Shown in pieces: positions 1-51,685 of a stretch of 64,000 bases of DNA. The notes under the pieces were generated by a model. That model was given only the letters and a program-made list of their open reading frames with translations. It made no database searches and was not told the origin of the DNA. A program made the translations under genes and the position numbers. Position 1 is the stretch's first letter. Each line of letters begins with the position of its first letter. Origin of the DNA: a virus (taxonomy: Duplodnaviria; Caudoviricetes); the IMG/VR virus record IMGVR_UViG_3300033121_000786, positions 45,841 to 109,840 of that record. One strand, given 5' to 3'.

Positions 1-1314
1 TGGTCCTCTATCCCTTGCAATATTTGCAATTGCTTTATGTGATAATTTATCACCAAATTTAGTCAGTAATGTTCTATCTAATTCTGGCGACTTTTCACTA
101 ATCTCATCCAAAAGGGGTTCTGTCACTTTATCTTTATGATGTGATAATATCTTTTCATGTGTTGATGGGTTTATTTCCGCAATCCTGTGTAATATGCTTG
201 GGTTTGTATCATATTCTTTTGGATTATCTAATATTCTATGATGTAAATCAGGATTATTATATAACAAATCTTTAATTATATATAATGGTGTTTTAGGATT
301 ATTAATTATTGCTTTATCATGACTTTCATCATGATAACCATTTAATCTAGCTCTTCTAAAATCATCTGAAGATAATGCTCCATTCTTAATTTTATTTTCA
401 TATTTCTGCTTATGAATCTGTTTTTCTTCATCAGTTAATGGTGCAGAAATTCGCTTATCTTTTTCTGAATGATCATCTTGATATACGGATGGATCAAGTT
501 TATATTCTTCGCCTTTTTTTAAAGGAAAATTTTCTTCTGCCCATTTTGAAACAGAATTATGAAAAGTTCTATGCACATCATCTTCACCGTAATGCTTTGG
601 CGCAGGACGTAATACCCGATGACCAGAAGTTGTTGAAATAAAAGGTTGTAAAGCAATTCTTGCTGTTGCTGTTTTAGGATTATTTGGATCAGTTTCATCT
701 TTGTGTACATTATATGCTACAGCACCACCATTTTCTACATCAGCATCAAGATTTGATGCAGCATGATCACAAGCACCAAATTTAGCACAACTTCGCCAAG
801 GTTTTAGATGTGAACTTTTTCCTTGTATAGCATAAGGATGATTACTAACAATAATCTTTCTATCAGAATCCGGTTTTAATGGTTTTCCGACCCAACGAGT
901 TTGTTTGTCTGATGCATTTCTTCTATAAGTTTCTGGATCGTAATCATCAACAGAATCATTTGCTTGATTTTGTGCATCATTATAATCCTTTAATAATTTA
1001 GGATCACTTTTAATAACAGAAATTAAAGGTTTTTTAAATCCAGGTCTTGATATCCCATTTGGATCAGTATAATCTGGTGATTGTATTGTTTTATGATCAA
1101 CTTGTTTCCAATGACCATGTATAGATGGATTCTTCTTTAAATGATTATCAATTCTATCTTGTAAAATATTTTTAATTGGAATCTCTGACCAACCCGTTTC
1201 TTTTGGAATTACATGAGAATGAAAATCATTATCCGGTGTTAATCGTTTTTTATTAACAATTTTTTGTTCTGTTGGTGTTAAATATTCCCGAATAAATGAT
1301 TTAAAATTTAACAT
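1..1314 (-). CDS. His-rich late protein with capsid-targeting-like N-terminus (putative internal head/ejected protein); 3' end runs off the window
   Basis: Not in the ORF track because it is truncated. ATG at 1314-1312 reads MLNFKSFIREYLTPTEQK... with an open frame to base 1. N-terminus resembles the T4 internal-protein CTS (MKTYQEFIAE); late promoter just upstream. Confidence 0.75.
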   Translation of the reverse strand, partial: MLNFKSFIREYLTPTEQKIVNKKRLTPDNDFHSHVIPKETGWSEIPIKNILQDRIDNHLKKNPSIHGHWKQVDHKTIQSPDYTDPNGISRPGFKKPLISVIKSDPKLLKDYNDAQNQANDSVDDYDPETYRRNASDKQTRWVGKPLKPDSDRKIIVSNHPYAIQGKSSHLKPWRSCAKFGACDHAASNLDADVENGGAVAYNVHKDETDPNNPKTATARIALQPFISTTSGHRVLRPAPKHYGEDDVHRTFHNSVSKWAEENFPLKKGEEYKLDPSVYQDDHSEKDKRISAPLTDEEKQIHKQKYENKIKNGALSSDDFRRARLNGYHDESHDKAIINNPKTPLYIIKDLLYNNPDLHHRILDNPKEYDTNPSILHRIAEINPSTHEKILSHHKDKVTEPLLDEISEKSPELDRTLLTKFGDKLSHKAIANIARDRGP

Positions 1315-1345
1315 ATAATATCTCTAAAATAACGGTTACTTCTAA

Positions 1346-1353
1346 TATTTATA
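1346..1353 (-). promoter_or_regulatory. T4-type late promoter TATAAATA
   Basis: Exact TATAAATA on the minus strand ~30 nt upstream of the ATG at 1314; gp55 is encoded in the window. Confidence 0.7.
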
Positions 1354-1459
1354 ATTTATATAGTTTGCTTGATAATCAAAAAAAATAGATTTAATGGTAT
1401 ACTACATAACCAATAGTATATTCTATAGAATTTTGAGATTTTAATAATAAGTTTCGTTT

Positions 1460-1732
1460 TCAATGTGTATCCGGATAATTCCAATAAGGGATTCTTTTGT
1501 GATGATACATTTCATATTTATTATGGAAATGTCTATCATAAAATTGATAAGGATAATATGGTCTATTTATTGGTGGCGGAGGTAGATTATAACCATAATA
1601 CGGATTAAATGGTCTATATATCATAGGTGGTCCTATATATGGTCTATAAATTGGTGGTGGAGCATAATTATAATAATCATGAGCAAAAGAATTACTTATG
1701 ATCATAAAATATACTATTAATATTTTTAACAT
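1460..1732 (-). CDS. Small exported Pro/Tyr-rich protein
   Basis: Signal-peptide-like N-terminus ending SNSFA, followed by low-complexity YRPY/PPP segments. Confidence 0.6.
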   Translation of the reverse strand: MLKILIVYFMIISNSFAHDYYNYAPPPIYRPYIGPPMIYRPFNPYYGYNLPPPPINRPYYPYQFYDRHFHNKYEMYHHKRIPYWNYPDTH

Positions 1733-1736
1733 TTAA

Positions 1737-2594
1737 TTACCTTTTATTATTTTTTGATATCATTCCTTGAAATGCAACAACAAAACCAATATTATTATAT
1801 GATACATATTCATTATTTAATATTTCATATAATTTTTGTTGGAAGTCATTTGTTGAAAATTTAAATTTTTTTAATCCCCAATTAAATAACTTTATTGCAT
1901 CATTAAAATCTACTTGGATCAAAAAATCATCTACATAAATTTTATTACTGAATAATAATTCTTGAACACGTTTTGTCGTTGAAGGAACTTCTTTAGTTTC
2001 TTGAGTTTTCTTTACAAAACCAAATACTTTAATTATTTGTTTAGCAACGGCTAAAACGGTAACTATATCCATATAAAGATCATTATTTTTATAGTTATAA
2101 TAATTACTTAATGTATTTTGTACATTATATACATCTTCATATGCCTTAATACGTTCTGTTGGATCAACACCAAAAAACTTTGATAAACAATTTCTTCCTA
2201 TTTGTTTAAATTCGTTTTTATCATTTTTAAATATAAATGTATCAGTTCTATATCTATTTATTAAACAATGATCACAAAATGAATTTTTTGTATAATATAC
2301 ATCAGGAATAGTCATTTCTGGAGTTATTTTAATTAAATTTGTTGTTCCATGATGTATAGAACCACAAAATTGATAATTGTCAATTATAATAGTTTTATGT
2401 GATAAAGTTAATCTTATTGTTTCCAAATAAGCATCAAATTGATTATTAATATTATATTTTTTATAATAAGAATTTGATCTAGTTATTTTTACAATTGGAA
2501 AATTAAGATTTTTAATTTTAGTGTTTAATGATTCTAATTTAGATAAAGTATCATTAAGTTGTAATAATGGTAATTCAAATGATAATGTAGTCAT
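1737..2594 (-). CDS. Hypothetical phage protein with probable Zn-binding motif
   Basis: 285 aa; CDHC...R...QIGRNC motif; sigma70-like promoter upstream. Confidence 0.65.
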   Translation of the reverse strand: MTTLSFELPLLQLNDTLSKLESLNTKIKNLNFPIVKITRSNSYYKKYNINNQFDAYLETIRLTLSHKTIIIDNYQFCGSIHHGTTNLIKITPEMTIPDVYYTKNSFCDHCLINRYRTDTFIFKNDKNEFKQIGRNCLSKFFGVDPTERIKAYEDVYNVQNTLSNYYNYKNNDLYMDIVTVLAVAKQIIKVFGFVKKTQETKEVPSTTKRVQELLFSNKIYVDDFLIQVDFNDAIKLFNWGLKKFKFSTNDFQQKLYEILNNEYVSYNNIGFVVAFQGMISKNNKR

Positions 2595-2607
2595 AATATT
2601 ATGGTTA

Positions 2608-2653
2608 AATTTAACGAACGAAGTGAGTTAAATTGTTTTTGCGGAGCAAAAAC
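2608..2653 (+). repeat. Hairpin pair A+B (tandem-GA hairpin and GNA-triloop hairpin)
   Basis: AATTTAAC-GA-AC-GAA-GT-GA-GTTAAATT (2608-2634) directly followed by GTTTTTGC-GGA-GCAAAAAC (2635-2653). Confidence 0.8.
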
Positions 2654-2664
2654 TACTTTAATAC

Positions 2665-2693
2665 ATAATATCATCTTTAGTGTAAATTAGCAA
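2665..2693 (-). promoter_or_regulatory. sigma70-like promoter for the leftward genes
   Basis: TTGCTA-N17-TATTAT on the minus strand. Confidence 0.5.
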
Positions 2694-2776
2694 TTATTTT
2701 TTTTTATATTAAAATTAATAATTTTTTTAAAAATTTTTTGGCTTAGCCAGCTTAAGCTAGCTTAATTTTACTTTGA

Positions 2777-2823
2777 ATTTTTGCTTCGCAAAAATGCTTG
2801 AACTCGCTTTGCTCGTTCAAGCA
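2777..2823 (-). repeat. Hairpin pair A'+B' (mirror counterpart of 2608-2653)
   Basis: Minus strand reads TGCTTGAAC-GA-GC-AAA-GC-GA-GTTCAAGCA then ATTTTTGC-GAA-GCAAAAAT. Confidence 0.8.
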
Positions 2824-2829
2824 GTTTCG

Positions 2830-3255
2830 GTTTTTTTGATCAATTTTTGATTTTAGGAATTCTTAAAATACTTCAAGTGACAAATTTCAGACAAGCAATT
2901 GCCTTCGGTAAAGAAGGACAATTCTTGAAAGAAATAAATTTCAGACATTTTGTGCAGTAACCCATTAGGGTAAGATGGGAAGAGTTGATTCACCTTTTAC
3001 ACTGTAATTGCCTAGTCAATCGTAACACTTCATGACTACCTCTTCGGCATGTTCCTTTACCCACAAAATAGCAAAAGAACAACACTTGTTATCAGTTAGG
3101 ACAGAGCAAGTCTCTACTTTTAGAAGGTTTCTATATAAACCAACAAACAGATTAGTTTTCTTCTAACAAAACTAATAAACCTTATCCCCGCAGAGCAGTC
3201 ATAATAACCTGACTGATTACAGTTGATACACAACTATAGGATTATTTAAACTCAT
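2830..3255 (-). ncRNA. Putative large structured non-coding RNA (family not recognised)
   Basis: ORF-free and GC-richer than its flanks. Many stems need G-U pairs on the minus strand; long-range closing helix 3001-3008/3217-3224; own promoter at 3260-3290. Ends are approximate. Confidence 0.6.
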
Positions 3256-3259
3256 TGAT

Positions 3260-3290
3260 TATTTATACCAGATTAAATTTGATTTGTCAA
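3260..3290 (-). promoter_or_regulatory. Overlapping sigma70 and late promoter firing into the non-coding region
   Basis: TTGACA-N17-TATAAA on the minus strand; the -10 extends to the late consensus TATAAATA. Confidence 0.75.
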
Positions 3291-3337
3291 GTTTTTTTCA
3301 CATAAATATTAAAAAAATAAGTAATTCGGAAGATATT

Positions 3338-3721
3338 ATGAATGTAAAAATAGTTAGATTAAATTATGGTGATGACATTATTGGTGAAGTAGATTTTCAG
3401 TCTGATGTAATAGTTATTGATAATCCAATGTCAATAAGTATAGATGTTGATCGTAAAAATAACATACCTTTTCTTAAAATGAAACCTTGGTTGCCGGTTT
3501 ATTTAGTTAGTGATGAAAGTGTAACATTTAATTATTCAGATATATTATCAGTTTTTGAACCAAAATCTGAAATTGTTGAATTTTACTTACAATTTATCTC
3601 ACGATCAACTGAATCTTCAAAAGAAATTTGCAAAAGTTCAATGCCAAAAGAAGATGAAAATTTTGATTCAAATGTTCTCCTTGAATGTATTTTAGCAAAA
3701 GTAGAAAATAAAATTCATTAA
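3338..3721 (+). CDS. Conserved small T4-like protein (probable Sm-like beta-barrel), paralog of 18240-18548
   Basis: MNVKIVRLNYGDDIIGEV...NPM pattern, typical of the gene preceding gp55 in T4-like phages. ATG 3338 preferred over TTG 3284. Confidence 0.6.
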   Translation: MNVKIVRLNYGDDIIGEVDFQSDVIVIDNPMSISIDVDRKNNIPFLKMKPWLPVYLVSDESVTFNYSDILSVFEPKSEIVEFYLQFISRSTESSKEICKSSMPKEDENFDSNVLLECILAKVENKIH

Positions 3722-3725
3722 TCAC

Positions 3726-3754
3726 TTTACTTTTGTTATTGATTTTGTTATACT
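3726..3754 (+). promoter_or_regulatory. sigma70-like promoter for gp55
   Basis: TTTACT-N17-TATACT with TGn extended -10. Confidence 0.55.
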
Positions 3755-3783
3755 TCATTGTGAGATATTTAATGGAGAAAACA

Positions 3784-4785
3784 ATGGAAGAAAAATTACC
3801 CTATAATTATTATATTGACAACGAAAAATTTCTTGAGAGTCTAATTGATCATAAGAAAAATGTTGAACATGCCAAATTAAATAATTTACCAAAACCAAAG
3901 ATTCCAAATTATATTGGAGAATGTTTTATAAAAATTGCAACTAATTTAGCGAAACGACCCAACTTCTATCTTTATTGTGTTGATGACCAAACAGAAGCTT
4001 TGACGCAAAGAGGATGGTTAAAATATAATGAAATTAATTTAACAGATACCATTTTAAGTGTTGATCCAAACGATCAAGATTTTAATTTGAAATGGTCTAA
4101 CGTCTTGGATGTTTACAGAAATGAAACTTATTCTGGTAAATGTTATAATATAAAAGGAGAAATTGATGCATTAGTAACTCCAGGTCATAAGTGGTTGACT
4201 CTTAATAGAGGATTGGTTAAAGTTGAAGATTTGGAAGATAATGATGTGATAGTAGTAAATACTACCAAATCAAAATCTTCTGCTTTATCTTGTTTAGTTG
4301 GTGATTTAAATATTTCTGTTGTGGATTATTCGGGTGTTGTTTGGTGTCCTTCTACGGAATTTGGGACTTTTATGGCAAGAAGAAATGGTAAAATTTATAT
4401 TACCGGAAATTCATATAAAGATGAGATGATTGCTGATGCTATTGAAAATCTGTGTACTTATCTTGATAATTTTGATCCTGAATTAGCTTCTAAAAATCCA
4501 TTTGGATATTTTACAAAGATTAGTTGGTATGCGTTTGTTAGACGACTTGCTAAAGAAAAAAAACAACAATATATTAAATATAAAGCAACCGAAACGTTTG
4601 GAACATATAACGATGAAGAATTATTAGAATTAGAAGATGGATCAATTGCACAAATTCAAATCTATGATAACCTATATGAATTTATTGAAAAATATGAAGA
4701 TTCTTTACGCGAGAAGAAAGAATTAACATCAAAGAAAAAAGGAATTGAAAATTTTTTACTTGATGACTCAGAGGAACTAATATAA
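3784..4785 (+). CDS. 55: Late-transcription sigma factor gp55 containing a mini-intein
   Basis: YIDNEKF...YIGECFIKIATNLAKRPNF..Y|intein|SYKDEMIADAIEN...FDP...NPFGYFTKI...AFVRR matches gp55. Start may be 3772 or 3784. Confidence 0.93.
   Translation: MEEKLPYNYYIDNEKFLESLIDHKKNVEHAKLNNLPKPKIPNYIGECFIKIATNLAKRPNFYLYCVDDQTEALTQRGWLKYNEINLTDTILSVDPNDQDFNLKWSNVLDVYRNETYSGKCYNIKGEIDALVTPGHKWLTLNRGLVKVEDLEDNDVIVVNTTKSKSSALSCLVGDLNISVVDYSGVVWCPSTEFGTFMARRNGKIYITGNSYKDEMIADAIENLCTYLDNFDPELASKNPFGYFTKISWYAFVRRLAKEKKQQYIKYKATETFGTYNDEELLELEDGSIAQIQIYDNLYEFIEKYEDSLREKKELTSKKKGIENFLLDDSEELI
3976..4410 (+). mobile_element. Mini-intein (145 aa, no endonuclease) in gp55
   Basis: Block A CVDDQTEALTQRGW, block B VTPGHKW, blocks F/G VWCPSTEFGTFMARRNGKIYITGN followed by Ser+1. 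Confidence 0.92.
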
Positions 4786-4997
4786 TGAAACATTTCTTTA
4801 AATTTCTTTTTTTTATTTTACTTAATATAGTATTTTCTATGGGAATAGGATTAAATATAACTATATTAACAAAATCTAATGCTCTTGGACAAGTGATTGC
4901 AGCATTTTTAATTTTTATTGTTTCTTTATTCATTTGCAGAGATTATTATCCAAATGGGTTTAGTTCGGAAACAGAAAAAGACGATAAAGATGAATAA
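4785..4997 (+). CDS. Small two-TM membrane protein
   Basis: Two hydrophobic stretches; overlaps the gp55 stop and the gp47 start. Confidence 0.55.
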   Translation: MKHFFKFLFFILLNIVFSMGIGLNITILTKSNALGQVIAAFLIFIVSLFICRDYYPNGFSSETEKDDKDE

Positions 4998-6018
4998 AAT
5001 TGCAATTCTTGGTGATTGTCATTTTGGAATAAAACAAAATTCAAGATGTTTCAATACTTTTTTTGAGAAATTTTATTCAAATATTTTTTTTCCTTATCTT
5101 CAAGAACATAATATAAAAACAATAGTTCAATTAGGAGATTTATTTGATAATAGAAAATCTATGAATTATAATGATCTATATCATTGTAAAAAATATTTTT
5201 TTGATAAATTAGAAGAAAATGATATTCATATGATTACTTTAATAGGTAATCATGATTCATATTACAGGAATACAATACAAATTAATTCTCCAAGTGTAAT
5301 ATTAAATAATTATAAACATATTACTATCATTGATAAACCTCAAAAAGTTTTATTGAATGATAATAAAGTTTTAATGATTCCCTGGATTTGTAGTGAAAAT
5401 GAATCCGAATGTATGAATTTTATACAAAACAATGATACTAATTTTTGTTTTGGCCATTTTGAAATAAAAAATTTCTCAATGTATAAAGGAGTCGAGAATT
5501 ATGATGGATTAAATGTATCAATTTTCTCTAAATTTGAATTTGTATTCAGTGGACACTTTCATACAAGAAGTTATAGAGATAATATTTATTATCTAGGAAC
5601 TCCGGCTGAACACACATGGAATGATTATAATGATCAGAAGGGATTTCATGTATTTGATTTTGAATCTAGGAAATTAGATTTTATTGAAAATCCATTTTGC
5701 ATGTTTCATAAAATATATTTTAATGAAAATATACATGATTTATCTTTAGAACAGTATAAAGATACTGTAATAAAAATTCAGACAAAAAAATGTGATGAAT
5801 CATTTGAATTATTTTTAGATAAACTTACTTTAGTAAATCCATTTGAAATTATTGTTATTGAAGAACAAGAATCTTTTGATAATGATAGTAATATTGATGA
5901 AATGAAAGATACCTTAACTTATATGAATGAATATATAGATGGAATAACGATCCCTGATGTAGAACCAGAAATCTTAAAAAAATTAATGTTGAACATTTAT
6001 TCAAGTGCTTTAGAATGA
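4990..6018 (+). CDS. 47: Recombination nuclease gp47 (Mre11/SbcD-like)
   Basis: GDCHFG, GDLFD, GNHD, GHF and SGHFH metallophosphoesterase motifs; adjacent to gp46. Confidence 0.95.
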   Translation: MNKIAILGDCHFGIKQNSRCFNTFFEKFYSNIFFPYLQEHNIKTIVQLGDLFDNRKSMNYNDLYHCKKYFFDKLEENDIHMITLIGNHDSYYRNTIQINSPSVILNNYKHITIIDKPQKVLLNDNKVLMIPWICSENESECMNFIQNNDTNFCFGHFEIKNFSMYKGVENYDGLNVSIFSKFEFVFSGHFHTRSYRDNIYYLGTPAEHTWNDYNDQKGFHVFDFESRKLDFIENPFCMFHKIYFNENIHDLSLEQYKDTVIKIQTKKCDESFELFLDKLTLVNPFEIIVIEEQESFDNDSNIDEMKDTLTYMNEYIDGITIPDVEPEILKKLMLNIYSSALE

Positions 6019-7739
6019 AAATACTTTTTACTAAATTACGATATAAAAATTTTTTATCAATTGGCAAAAATTTTGTAGAAATTGATTTAAATACATCTAA
6101 AAGAACATTAATCTTTGGTAAAAATGGTAAAGGGAAAAGTACGATTTTAGATGCATTAGTTTTTTCTTTGTTTGGAAAACCATTCAGAAATATTAATAAA
6201 CCTACTGTTGTTAACTCAATAAACAAAAGTAATTGTGTTACTGAAATAGAATTTGTGATTGGAGAAAATTACTATAAAATAATAAGAGGACTTAAACCAA
6301 CAATATTTGAAATATACAAGAACGGGGAATTAATTAAACAAAATGCAACAGTAAAAGAGTATCAAATATTATTAGAAGAAACAATACTAAAAACAAATTA
6401 TAAGTCATTTATTCAAATTGTTATTTTAGGTAGTGCTAATTACATACCATTCATGCAATTGACAGCATCTGAACGACGATTCATCGTTGAAGATTTATTA
6501 GATATTCAAGTTTTTTCAACAATGAATATCATTGCAAAAGATAGATTATCAATCCTAAAGTCTGAAATAGATAAACTTAAATTTGATATAACAATAACAC
6601 AATCTACAATAGATAATAAAAAACAGTTTTTAACTACTATTAAAGATAATTCTAATACTCAATTAATATCATTAGAAAACGATATTAATGATTTCAATGA
6701 TAAGATAACATTCATAAAACAAGAAATTTCAAGTCTTGAATTGGAGATAATTAATCATACTCAATCAATTATTAATAAAATTGAGATTGAAAATCAAAAA
6801 CAAAGATTATTAACAATGGAGACAAAAGGTGAAGGATTTTTAAATAAAATAAATAAACACATTAATTTTTATGAAAATTATGATGAATGTCCTACCTGTA
6901 AGCAATCTATTGATTTAAAATTTAAGAATGAAAAAATAGATCATCACCTAAAACGAAAATCTATTATTGAGAATGGATTAAAAAAAGTAAAAAAAGATTT
7001 AAAAGACAATCTGTTAGTAATGGAAAATATTACTAACATTTCTAAGGAGATGTTAATTAAAGAAAAAAAGATAACTGAATTGCAAACTACGATAAATAGA
7101 TATACTGATTTTATTGAAAATTTAAATAATAAAGTTAATGAGATTAAAAATCTTGAAACGAATACTTTTGAACTAGAATCACAAGAATTATTATTATTAA
7201 CAAATAAATACAATGATCAACTTTTAACAAAAGAATCTTTATTACAACAAAAACGATATTTAGAAGTTGCATTATCTTTATTAAAAGACAATGGAATAAA
7301 GGTAAAATTAATTAAAAAATATTTACCTGTATTAAATCAGTTAATCAATAAGTATCTTTCTAGTTTAAATTTATCAATTAATTTTAATATTAATGAACAA
7401 TTTGGAGAAATAATTAAGAGTCGAGGAAGGGATGAATTTTCATATTACAATTTTAGTGAAGGACAAAAACTAAAAATTGATATAAGTTTATTATTAGCAT
7501 TTAGGGAAATTGCAAAGAAAAAAAATAGTATTAATTGTAATTTATTAATTATGGATGAAATTTTAGATAGTTCATTAGATTCAGATGGTATTCAAGATTT
7601 TTTTGAATTATTAAATACTATTGGTGATAAGACTAATGTGTTTATTATTTCACATAGAACAGAAGAAATACAAGAAAAATTTGATAGATTGATTAAATTT
7701 GATATGAATAAAAATTTTACAAAAATGAAGGTAATTTAA
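6015..7739 (+). CDS. 46: Recombination ATPase gp46 (Rad50/SbcC-like)
   Basis: Walker A GKNGKGKST, CPTC hook, FSEGQ signature, MDEILD Walker B. Confidence 0.96.
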   Translation: MKILFTKLRYKNFLSIGKNFVEIDLNTSKRTLIFGKNGKGKSTILDALVFSLFGKPFRNINKPTVVNSINKSNCVTEIEFVIGENYYKIIRGLKPTIFEIYKNGELIKQNATVKEYQILLEETILKTNYKSFIQIVILGSANYIPFMQLTASERRFIVEDLLDIQVFSTMNIIAKDRLSILKSEIDKLKFDITITQSTIDNKKQFLTTIKDNSNTQLISLENDINDFNDKITFIKQEISSLELEIINHTQSIINKIEIENQKQRLLTMETKGEGFLNKINKHINFYENYDECPTCKQSIDLKFKNEKIDHHLKRKSIIENGLKKVKKDLKDNLLVMENITNISKEMLIKEKKITELQTTINRYTDFIENLNNKVNEIKNLETNTFELESQELLLLTNKYNDQLLTKESLLQQKRYLEVALSLLKDNGIKVKLIKKYLPVLNQLINKYLSSLNLSINFNINEQFGEIIKSRGRDEFSYYNFSEGQKLKIDISLLLAFREIAKKKNSINCNLLIMDEILDSSLDSDGIQDFFELLNTIGDKTNVFIISHRTEEIQEKFDRLIKFDMNKNFTKMKVI

Positions 7740-12052: not shown

Positions 12053-13173
12053 AACAACAAGAGAAGAATTGGCAAAGAAAAAGTTATTCATTGGTATGCC
12101 CTGTTACGGAGGTATGATGTGTGGCATGACTGCCAAATCATTACTTGATTTACAAGCAGTTTTAGGACAATATGGTATAGACACTAAATTTAGTTTTTTA
12201 TTTAACGAATCACTAATTCAACGTGCGCGTAAAATATAATTGCGCCAATATAAAGTAATTTATATTGAAAAGATTGTTAATTGCTGGAAACTCCGAATGA
12301 ATCTTAATTACCACAACATAATTGGAAACGATAAGTGTGAAGGTTTAAAAAATATTAAGGAGCGGATGATCAGCAGCCGAGTACCTAAGTTATTAAATAT
12401 GGTAAGGGTTCACAGACCAGAGAATTGATCTCGTAGGAATTAAGCTAATGAATTCCGAAATACAATCATTCCTTAATGGAATATGATATGGTCGAATCTC
12501 TATAGAGATATAGAGCAGTTTAATAAACGGATAAGTTGTTGCGTAACTTATTGAATATAAAATGAATTATATAGCAGATGAATTTTTAAATCGATCTGAT
12601 TGTACACATTTAATGTTTATTGATTCGGATATTGCATTTAATCCACAAGATGTTATTGCAATGTTAGCATTAGACAAAGATATTGCAGGCGGTCCTTATC
12701 CGAAAAAGTCGATTGATTGGGGGCAATTACATAGAGCAATTAAGAAACATCCTGATTTGCCAGCAAGTGAATATGAAAAGTTAACTGGGTCAATTGTATT
12801 TAATCCGGTTGGAGGGACTAAGCATTTTAATGTAACAGAACCTTTAGAAGTTTCTGAAGTTGGGACTGGATTTATGTTGATTAAACGGGAAGTTTTTGAG
12901 AAATTTCAAGAATCTCATCCTGAATATATGTATAAACCTGATCATGTTGGACAAGCACATTTTGGTGGAGATAGAGAAATATGTTCGTTTTTTAATGTTT
13001 TTATTGATCCTGATAGTAAAAGGACTTTATCAGAAGATTATTGTTTCTGTCATCAAGTTAGAAAATTGGGGATGAAAATTTGGTTATGTCCTTGGTTTAC
13101 TCTTAGTCATATTGGATCAAATATTTTCCAAGGTTCGTTACCAGCAGTAGCACAATATCTTGGAGAAATGTAA
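12042..13173 (+). CDS. GT-A-fold glycosyltransferase-like protein; spliced join(12042..12230,12565..13173), 265 aa
   Basis: Splicing restores NESLIQRAR|NYIADEFL...THLMFIDSDI (DxD), GTGFMLIKREVF and LSEDY.FC. Confidence 0.88.
12231..12564 (+). mobile_element. Group I self-splicing intron (334 nt, no ORF, probably subgroup IA)
   Basis: 5' splice site after U12230 (U-G pair with G12242 in P1); terminal G12564; P10 ATATAATT/AATTATAT; P3 GATTGT/ACAATC; P7 GACCA/TGGTC; P, Q, R and S elements present; reading frame restored. Confidence 0.93.
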
Positions 13174-50538: not shown

Positions 50539-50721
50539 ATGATTTATGACTTTTTAGAATTTTTATTATTAATAGTTATAGGTATTAGTGTATTTTTTAT
50601 GGTAATTTTATTCATGATATTATTAAGTATAATAGTGTTTACATTATTTTTTGTTATATTAATAATTTATTTAATTGATTCGGTTTCAGATTATTTTAAA
50701 AGCGCAACTATTGAGGATTAA
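50539..50721 (+). CDS. Small hydrophobic membrane protein
   Basis: ~40 consecutive mostly hydrophobic residues. Confidence 0.45.
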   Translation: MIYDFLEFLLLIVIGISVFFMVILFMILLSIIVFTLFFVILIIYLIDSVSDYFKSATIED

Positions 50722-50905
50722 AAATGACCTATATTAAACCCCCATTAAAAAAAATTAAAATAACAGAACAAGAAATTGAAGATGAATATCTTGATTTATT
50801 AAAAAATGCCGTTTCGTTTGAAGAATTACAATCTATAATTCAATCATTAGGTGGTGAATTAGAAAGAGTAGAAAATATTACCTATCATTAAGTGGAGTTT
50901 TTATT

Positions 50906-51307: not shown

Positions 51308-51475
51308 TAAAAATGGACAATAAATATATTTTACCACCAATTAACTTATGGAATTTTTGGATGTATAATAAACTCATCAGAGAATATGATGACAAAACCA
51401 TTTATAAAGAATGGATTGATGCAAAAATAAAGGAAATTATGGATAATTGAATTTCTTTTAACCTGGAATGTAAAT

Positions 51476-51667
51476 ATGAAAAATAAAGAACAAATTATTA
51501 TGGATATGTGTTATACATACCGACATGATTATGGATTAGAAAAAATTGACGGTATCATATCTTCAGGAACTTCACAGGAAGAAAGAAAATATATTTATGG
51601 TATAATGAAACAAATGTTTGAAAATTGTATTGAACCATATATGGAATTTAAAATTAACAATCAATAA
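51476..51667 (+). CDS. Hypothetical protein
   Basis: MC.TYRHDYGL motif; 63 aa. Confidence 0.6.
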   Translation: MKNKEQIIMDMCYTYRHDYGLEKIDGIISSGTSQEERKYIYGIMKQMFENCIEPYMEFKINNQ

Positions 51668-51685
51668 TTTAACCGAGGATAAGAT

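Follow-up and report, generated by a model that had tools for sequence, protein, structure and literature searches.

A probable new structured RNA in the longest ORF-free gap of a T4-like phage contig

What does a tightly packed phage genome carry in its longest gap between genes? We analysed a 64-kb stretch of DNA (the window; positions 45841-109840 of a 109,840-bp IMG/VR virus contig, GC 27.8%), in which the gap at 2595-3337 is the longest stretch without an ORF of at least 75 aa in the whole 110-kb contig. The contig comes from metagenomes and belongs to a T4-like myovirus. The best GenBank phage relatives of its gp47 were T4-like cyanophages and one Pelagibacter myophage, at about 40% identity. 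An earlier interpretation, made from the letters alone (the sequence-only reading), had described the DNA here as free of ORFs, and indeed no ORF in 2595-3337 exceeded 46 aa, the longest being 46, 44, 37, and 37 codons. To the right lie the gene of a DUF6561/phrog_527 protein (3338-3721), the gp55 late sigma factor gene, whose PHROG match is limited to residues 227-343 of the protein, and further on gp47/SbcD, gp46/SbcC, a peptide deformylase, and a ligase-like protein. To the left, a 285-aa phrog_2319 protein is encoded on the minus strand (2594-1737), with more unknown genes beyond. The gap sits at a strand-switch point. Its GC content reached 33.6% in 2830-3255, compared to 18-26% in the adjacent spacers and 27.8% genome-wide. 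If the gap holds an independent non-coding RNA (ncRNA) gene, the gene would be expected to keep its own promoter in relatives, to contain no conserved reading frame, and to preserve its pairing by compensatory change.

Only three other ORF-free gaps of at least 300 nt were found in the contig, at window positions 12053-12561, 50539-50905, and 51308-51685. The first had no Rfam match at gathering score, and the other two were very AT-rich (GC 21-24%). A local GC peak of about 60% at contig positions 606-1364, outside the window, coincides with a 252-aa glycine-rich protein (Pfam Gly_rich_2 match just under threshold), and is therefore a codon effect rather than foreign DNA. At about 40-42 kb the contig is GC-rich once more, beside a UvsW-type helicase.

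A minus-strand promoter of the form TTGACA-N17-TATAAA(TA) had been proposed to point into the gap, and we confirmed it by sequence match at 3290-3285 (-35 box, TTGACA) and 3267-3262 (-10 box, TATAAA), with a 17-nt spacer between the boxes. The -10 box is extended to the T4-type late motif TATAAATA at 3267-3260. Sites within one mismatch of TTGACA-N17-TATAAT numbered 9 in the window against 3.2 expected, and TATAAATA was under-represented (15 versus 25.6 expected). Several copies of the late motif lie 30-40 nt upstream of start codons, as use by gp55 predicts, and for this reason are probably real late promoters. The predicted transcript, whose 5' end was placed by the -10 box and whose 3' end by a terminator, spans about 465 nt (2790-3255, minus). 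The terminator-like hairpin (2823-2795) consists of a 9-bp stem, a tandem G-A, a 2-bp GC tip, and an AAA loop, and is followed by UUUUU at 2794-2790. Its pair probability in the full-transcript fold was 1.0. A simple terminator scan skipped it because the loop exceeds the limit of the scan. The RNA of about 400 nt formerly drawn at 2830-3290 needs correction in its extent, as the predicted unit runs on to the terminator at 2823-2790.

We then compared the region with known RNA families. No Rfam 15 family matched at gathering score anywhere in the 64-kb window, and specifically none of the covariance models for GOLLD, ROOL, HEARO, RNase P, tmRNA, group I/II introns, or 6S reached it. When the cutoff was relaxed to E <=10 over 2300-3500, only chance-level snoRNA and sRNA matches appeared, the best scoring 25 bits against a gathering score of 45. 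ARAGORN reported no tRNA or tmRNA gene in the window. The earlier statement that the element is not a tRNA or a group I intron, and is not recognisable as tmRNA or RNase P, agrees with these results, and its novelty survived the Rfam check that had been proposed for it. Single-sequence folding was less informative. The minus strand folded at -104 kcal/mol compared to -88.0 +/- 6.6 for shuffled sequences (z -2.44), so that folding did exceed shuffled controls as predicted, but the excess was modest and the plus strand gave a z of -2.26. Sliding 150-nt windows reached z -2 to -2.7 in places only. The single-sequence folding signal alone is thus weak and not strand-specific. When the phage genome was searched for antisense targets, 87 complementary 11-mers turned up versus 92 expected.

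Relatives of the locus were gathered through both flanking proteins, which yielded 16 metagenome contigs that were 97-98% identical to the window. Across window 1-6727 these contigs varied at 137 sites, with many in the gp55 insert and none in 2830-3255, where about 5 were expected. The absence of polymorphism is compatible with purifying selection without deciding the matter, as quiet stretches occur elsewhere too; and since the RNA is invariant among the 16 contigs, they carry no information on covariation. A polymorphism hotspot at window 3900-4500 (61 of the 137 sites) lay in gp55 ahead of its PHROG-matching part, a cluster that fits a fast-evolving inserted element. One variant contig, L018, matched the DUF6561 gene, the promoter, and the first ~68 nt of the transcript, and continued into unrelated DNA beyond window 3186. 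The DNA joined there (L018:1-491) carries two small plus-strand ORFs (61 aa and 67 aa), for which neither Pfam nor phages gave a match. An assignment of the left part of L018 to the N-terminus of ribonucleotide reductase was confirmed by neither Pfam nor tblastn. L018 is an assembly chimera or else a natural variant without most of the RNA; if it is real, the RNA is dispensable.

More distant relatives were rare. A blastn search in distant mode with the gap found no match among 50,697 phage records; the two flanking proteins retrieved near-identical relatives only from a set of 5.8 billion proteins; IMG/VR, searched by protein and by DNA motif, held no RNA homologue; a motif scan of JGI metagenomes gave 58 matches, none of them related by blastn or nhmmer; and two motif scans of GTDB genomes returned no matches. 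The more distant DUF6561 genes (P0129 and P0132) have another gene directly upstream and no gap. Contigs with a gp47 at 49-69% identity stop at or inside the gp55-gp47 region, so the DNA upstream lies beyond their ends. An exhaustive HMMER search with the DUF6561 protein returned one homologue at 52-54% identity, P0125. Its contig, L027 (3,232 nt), has 868 nt without a called gene upstream of the P0125 gene, and alignment to the window revealed a clear homologue of the RNA in this stretch. The RNA is thus known from two lineages of one small clade. Against Rfam at E <=10, the L027 homologue likewise gave chance-level matches only.

Comparison of the window with L027 divided the RNA into two conserved domains and a variable segment. 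The 5' domain (3247-3037, minus; alignment A6 columns 20-232) contains helices 1-10 and was 87.8% identical in L027. The 3' domain (3014-2943, minus), in which GUGUA/UGCAC encloses AAGGUG/CAUCUU and ACCC/GGGU, was 84.5% identical. Between them, the variable segment (3015-3036, minus) forms an extra small hairpin in the lineage of the window, with 22% identity and a 12-nt deletion in L027. By comparison, nucleotide identity was 62% in the DUF6561 coding sequence, 65% at the gp55 5' end, and 70% at the gp47 5' end. The gp55 protein measures 521 aa in L027 and 331-337 aa in the lineage of the window. Similarity set in at the -35 box and ended with the terminator hairpin, beyond which the two lineages have different genes. 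Because these bounds are the -35 box and the terminal hairpin, the conserved block coincides with the predicted transcription unit. The promoter itself was kept in relatives: TTGACA and the 17-nt spacing were identical in the window, L027, and L093, although the surrounding spacer, from the RNA promoter to the DUF6561 start, was just 48% identical between the window and L027. The -10 box reads TATCTT in both L027 and L093, and TATAAATA is confined to the lineage of the window. Only the sigma-70-type -10 is therefore conserved, the late motif is not, and the dual early and late promoter that had been proposed did not carry over to the relatives.

We further investigated if the pairing of the RNA was conserved. 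RNAalifold on the window and L027 gave a consensus of 98 pairs, 4 of them changed on both sides and none broken, with the structure derived from the same two sequences on which it was scored. After two long-range helices were removed, the 15 local helices (84 pairs) were 100% paired in both sequences, with 4 two-sided (compensatory) changes and 9 one-sided changes between G-U and Watson-Crick pairs. When the partners were slid by 1-3 columns as a control, 39-51% remained paired and no compensatory change was seen. Compensatory changes fell in three separate hairpins of the core. A G-C pair of the window became A-U in the 9-bp hairpin at 3176-3168/3159-3151; a C-G pair became U-A in the 12-bp hairpin at 3081-3070/3061-3050, which also showed four G-U/Watson-Crick switches; and C-G became U-A at pair 2968/2963 of ACCC/GGGU (2971-2968/2963-2960). 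In the 3' domain, pair 2993/2975 changed from G-U to A-U. Pairing was thus kept by compensatory change, in two lineages only, and the covariation rests on few events because no more than two independent lineages are known. The covariation that had been proposed as a check was seen in one diverged homologue. Together, these results showed that the core of about 300 nt consists of two domains with at least 13 local helices, kept in sequence and pairing by one diverged lineage.

An independent test of the structure was made by predicting a fold from the window alone and comparing the 92 substitutions of L027 with random placement. On the minus strand, 17 pairs were broken compared to 33.3 +/- 3.7 at random (P ~0.0002), and 9 double changes were found versus 3.9 expected. 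On the plus strand, 28 pairs were broken versus 27.6 expected. When the core was folded by itself, pair breaks were significantly depleted on both strands (9 versus 16.7 and 5 versus 14.5), as expected of hairpins able to form on either strand, and every break in the minus-strand core fell in predicted long-range helices, ACUGUAAU/AUUACAGU among them. Column shuffling of the consensus fold gave z-scores of -6.0 for the core and -7.3 for the whole on the minus strand, compared to -3.3 and -3.8 on the plus strand; for the 3' domain the values were -3.0 (minus) and -0.7 (plus). G-U pairs occupied 16 of the 168 local-helix cells on the minus strand, each an A-C mismatch on the other strand, in agreement with the earlier argument that G-U pairs favour a minus-strand RNA. 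The strand was assigned from the conserved promoter, the G-U cells, the G-U/Watson-Crick switching of all 9 one-sided changes, and the fold z-scores.

The helices named in the sequence-only reading fared unevenly. Four belong to the consensus structure and were kept in L027, namely CAGUCA/UGACUG, AUUAGUUUU/AAAACUAAU, GGUUU/AAACC, and GUUCUUUUGCU/GGUAAAGGAAC. CUCUGC/GUAGAG persisted without its closing pair, UGCC/GGUA was lost through a change of GGUA to UUUA, and CCCAU/AUGGG gave way to the covarying register ACCC/GGGU. The long-range helix ACUGUAAU/AUUACAGU was absent from the minimum-energy fold of the full transcript, where a competing local hairpin had a pair probability of 0.97, and in the core-only fold it gained two mismatches in L027. 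The multi-branch domain of about 220 nt that this helix was thought to close is therefore left without support, its closing helix being contradicted.

The coding potential of the block was examined in the same alignment. Indels of 1, 1, 12, 1, and 15 nt break the reading frames between the window and L027. In L027 only 5 codons are left of the 30-codon ATG ORF that the window has, a 12-codon ORF at the 5' end of the RNA has no ATG there, and no ORF with a shared start survives between the two. No conserved reading frame was thus found in a block that was 85-88% identical, compared to 62-70% for the neighbouring genes, and the proposal of a new structured phage ncRNA with its own promoter was strengthened accordingly.

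The 3' part of the transcript and the DNA beyond it were less conserved. In the region at 2882-2947 (minus), a stable hairpin (2935-2884) lies between two exact copies of UGUCUGAAAUUU, at 2947-2936 and 2893-2882. Both copies read UGUCUAAAA in L027, with the same G-to-A change in each, and the hairpin between them is 15 nt shorter. The shared change hints that both copies may meet one common partner. The terminal hairpin of L027 kept 8 of its 9 stem pairs but has no U-tract, so the RNA there may run on into the next gene, and similarity to the window fades out after this hairpin. In place of the 285-aa gene of the window, L027 has an uncalled ORF of 95 aa (L027:28-315, minus) immediately beyond the RNA homologue. 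The N-terminus of this ORF resembles a signal peptide and its body is rich in Tyr, Pro, and His; it gave no Pfam match and is not on record. In the window, a 43-nt inverted repeat (2610-2652 and 2778-2820, 79% complementary) surrounds a 125-nt AT-rich core, each arm being a hairpin followed by a T5-GC-NNN-GC-A5 palindrome. The core contains a second promoter-like site of sigma-70 type, TTGCTA-17-TATTAT plus a TG extension (2693-2665, minus), which would serve the 285-aa gene. In L027, neither the array nor the AT-rich core follows the RNA. In appearance the array is closer to a PeSL-like terminator/promoter cassette than to an origin, and such a cassette would explain why synteny between the window and L027 breaks at that point.

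Several other explanations of the block were weighed against an RNA gene. Hairpins acting in single-stranded DNA, for instance as a priming or assembly site, would account for the conservation of core pairs on both strands. However, the G-U occupancy and switching described above, a conserved promoter pointing into the block, and consensus-fold z-scores far stronger on the minus strand make this the least probable of the explanations considered. A small protein has hardly better odds. The 37-codon ORF (3233-3120, TTG start) occurs in both lineages with the same stop, and the 21 residues before that stop hardly differ, IRFI(S/N)FV(R/K)RKLICLLVY(I/V)ETF, so that this ORF or another short one might be the functional product. 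A small-protein gene should nevertheless show a conserved start and frame and a synonymous bias, and the shared frame was confined to these C-terminal 21 codons: two 1-nt indels shift the frame of the N-terminal 16 codons despite nucleotide identity of ~90%, the starts differ (TTG versus GTG) and both are without a ribosome-binding site, the shared part has four substitutions of which two make up the compensatory change in the 9-bp hairpin, and sequence conservation reaches about 200 nt past the ORF. The block could also be alike in the two lineages through recent recombination between them rather than through selection. Hyperplastic regions of T4-like phages shuffle at promoter/stem-loop cassettes (PMC2839356, PMC4122927), the conserved block is bounded by promoter and stem-loop elements, and the L018 breakpoint falls inside it. 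Neutral drift, however, would be expected to break pairs at the random rate, and about half that number were broken here, with compensatory changes in three core hairpins and the promoter boxes kept inside a diverged spacer. We therefore regard exchange of a neutral segment as improbable.

The two remaining explanations concern what lies downstream. An RNA that primes replication or forms an R-loop by invading the adjacent AT-rich, hairpin-flanked DNA, in the manner of ColE1 RNA II or T4 oriF/oriG, had been put forward for this locus. Transcription does head toward the AT-rich core between the 43-nt inverted repeats, the RNA gene lies where the coding strand switches, and ColE1 RNA II is likewise a folded primer RNA, of ~550 nt. 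Such a primer would be expected to have a conserved unwinding element or origin immediately downstream, and according to L027 there is none: the RNA occurs there without array or core, and a different ORF follows. Moreover, the terminator ends the RNA before the array, the AT-rich core carries the promoter of the next gene, the -35 box is TTGACA rather than the MotA box that T4 origin promoters carry, GC skew tracks gene orientation only, and the L018 variant is without most of the RNA. A primer role thus appears slightly less credible even than exchange, and the earlier proposal was not sustained. A cis-acting leader or attenuator, in which core segments pair with the 5' arm of the hairpin and so decide read-through into the downstream cargo gene, is unlikely but deserves more weight than any of the other four. 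RNAalifold paired 3149-3142 and 3014-3009 with the hairpin 5' arm (2823-2810), and five L027 substitutions were all compatible with this pairing; the L027 hairpin is without a U-tract, and the 95-aa ORF follows about 45 nt on with no obvious promoter of its own. On the other hand, transition-compatible pairs arise easily by chance with two sequences. The window hairpin has a pair probability of 1.0 and a U-tract, the downstream gene of the window has its own promoter, and the downstream genes are unrelated between lineages, unlike those of leaders, which are tied to one gene function.

The best explanation of the locus, to which we give a probability of roughly 0.6, is an independent structured ncRNA gene, a cassette of promoter, gene, and terminator set into a variable part of a T4-like phage genome. 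The structured phage RNA is probably real, and new, as far as comparative sequence evidence from two lineages can tell. Host RNA polymerase would transcribe it early, and in the lineage of the window the gp55 late sigma factor would probably transcribe it again from TATAAATA. The RNA may then be released at the terminator and act in trans. Its many invariant unpaired stretches suggest binding to a specific protein or nucleic-acid partner during infection, through which the RNA could serve as a decoy, a scaffold, or a regulator; alternatively, it could self-assemble as ROOL and GOLLD do. The fuller proposition has about an even chance of being right: that AT-rich aquatic T4-like phages possess a class of large structured RNA not described before, which a strong early promoter would drive and which would either target a host or phage macromolecule in trans, perhaps as a decoy against host defence or an RNA-binding regulator, or self-assemble in the ROOL/GOLLD manner. 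Few large structured RNAs of lytic phages are known, and hardly any of them has an established function, so a further class may bring new RNA biochemistry, architecture, or a new route of host takeover. Given the compact core of ~300 nt, the clear ends, and the simple cassette, direct synthesis and probing of this RNA should be feasible with no need to culture a host. The analysis also takes weight off a speculative origin assignment for this genome.

Among known systems, ColE1 RNA II and the T4 oriF/oriG transcripts resemble this RNA as promoter-driven non-coding transcripts directed toward AT-rich DNA, and RNA II shares with it a folded structure and a comparable length; here, in contrast, the target DNA is unconserved, a terminator intervenes, and no MotA-type box is present. 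Phage morons are independent promoter-gene-terminator units. The likeness lies in a self-contained transcription unit between unrelated neighbours, but classical morons encode proteins and this unit encodes RNA. The PeSL of T4-like phages is a terminator stem-loop beside an early-type promoter, found where the gene content of related phages differs (PMC2839356, PMC4122927). A comparable arrangement may exist in the window, where TTGCTA-17-TATTAT at 2693-2665 lies beyond the hairpin at 2823-2795 and where synteny with L027 ends at that hairpin. PeSLs, however, are short regulatory motifs flanking small ORFs, whereas the cargo here is a conserved RNA of 300 nt. ROOL and GOLLD are phage-encoded, ORF-free, highly structured RNAs of several hundred nt and of unknown function, and were recognised from conservation and covariation (bioRxiv 10.1101/2024.12.08.627333; PMC5737381). 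This RNA gave no match to their covariance models even at E <=10, is not beside tRNA genes, of which the window has none, and unlike them is known from two lineages only. ROOL and GOLLD exceed 500-800 nt, compared to a core of ~300 nt here. Although this RNA belongs to neither family, the ROOL and GOLLD RNAs of phages and prophages are the nearest known things to it in kind.
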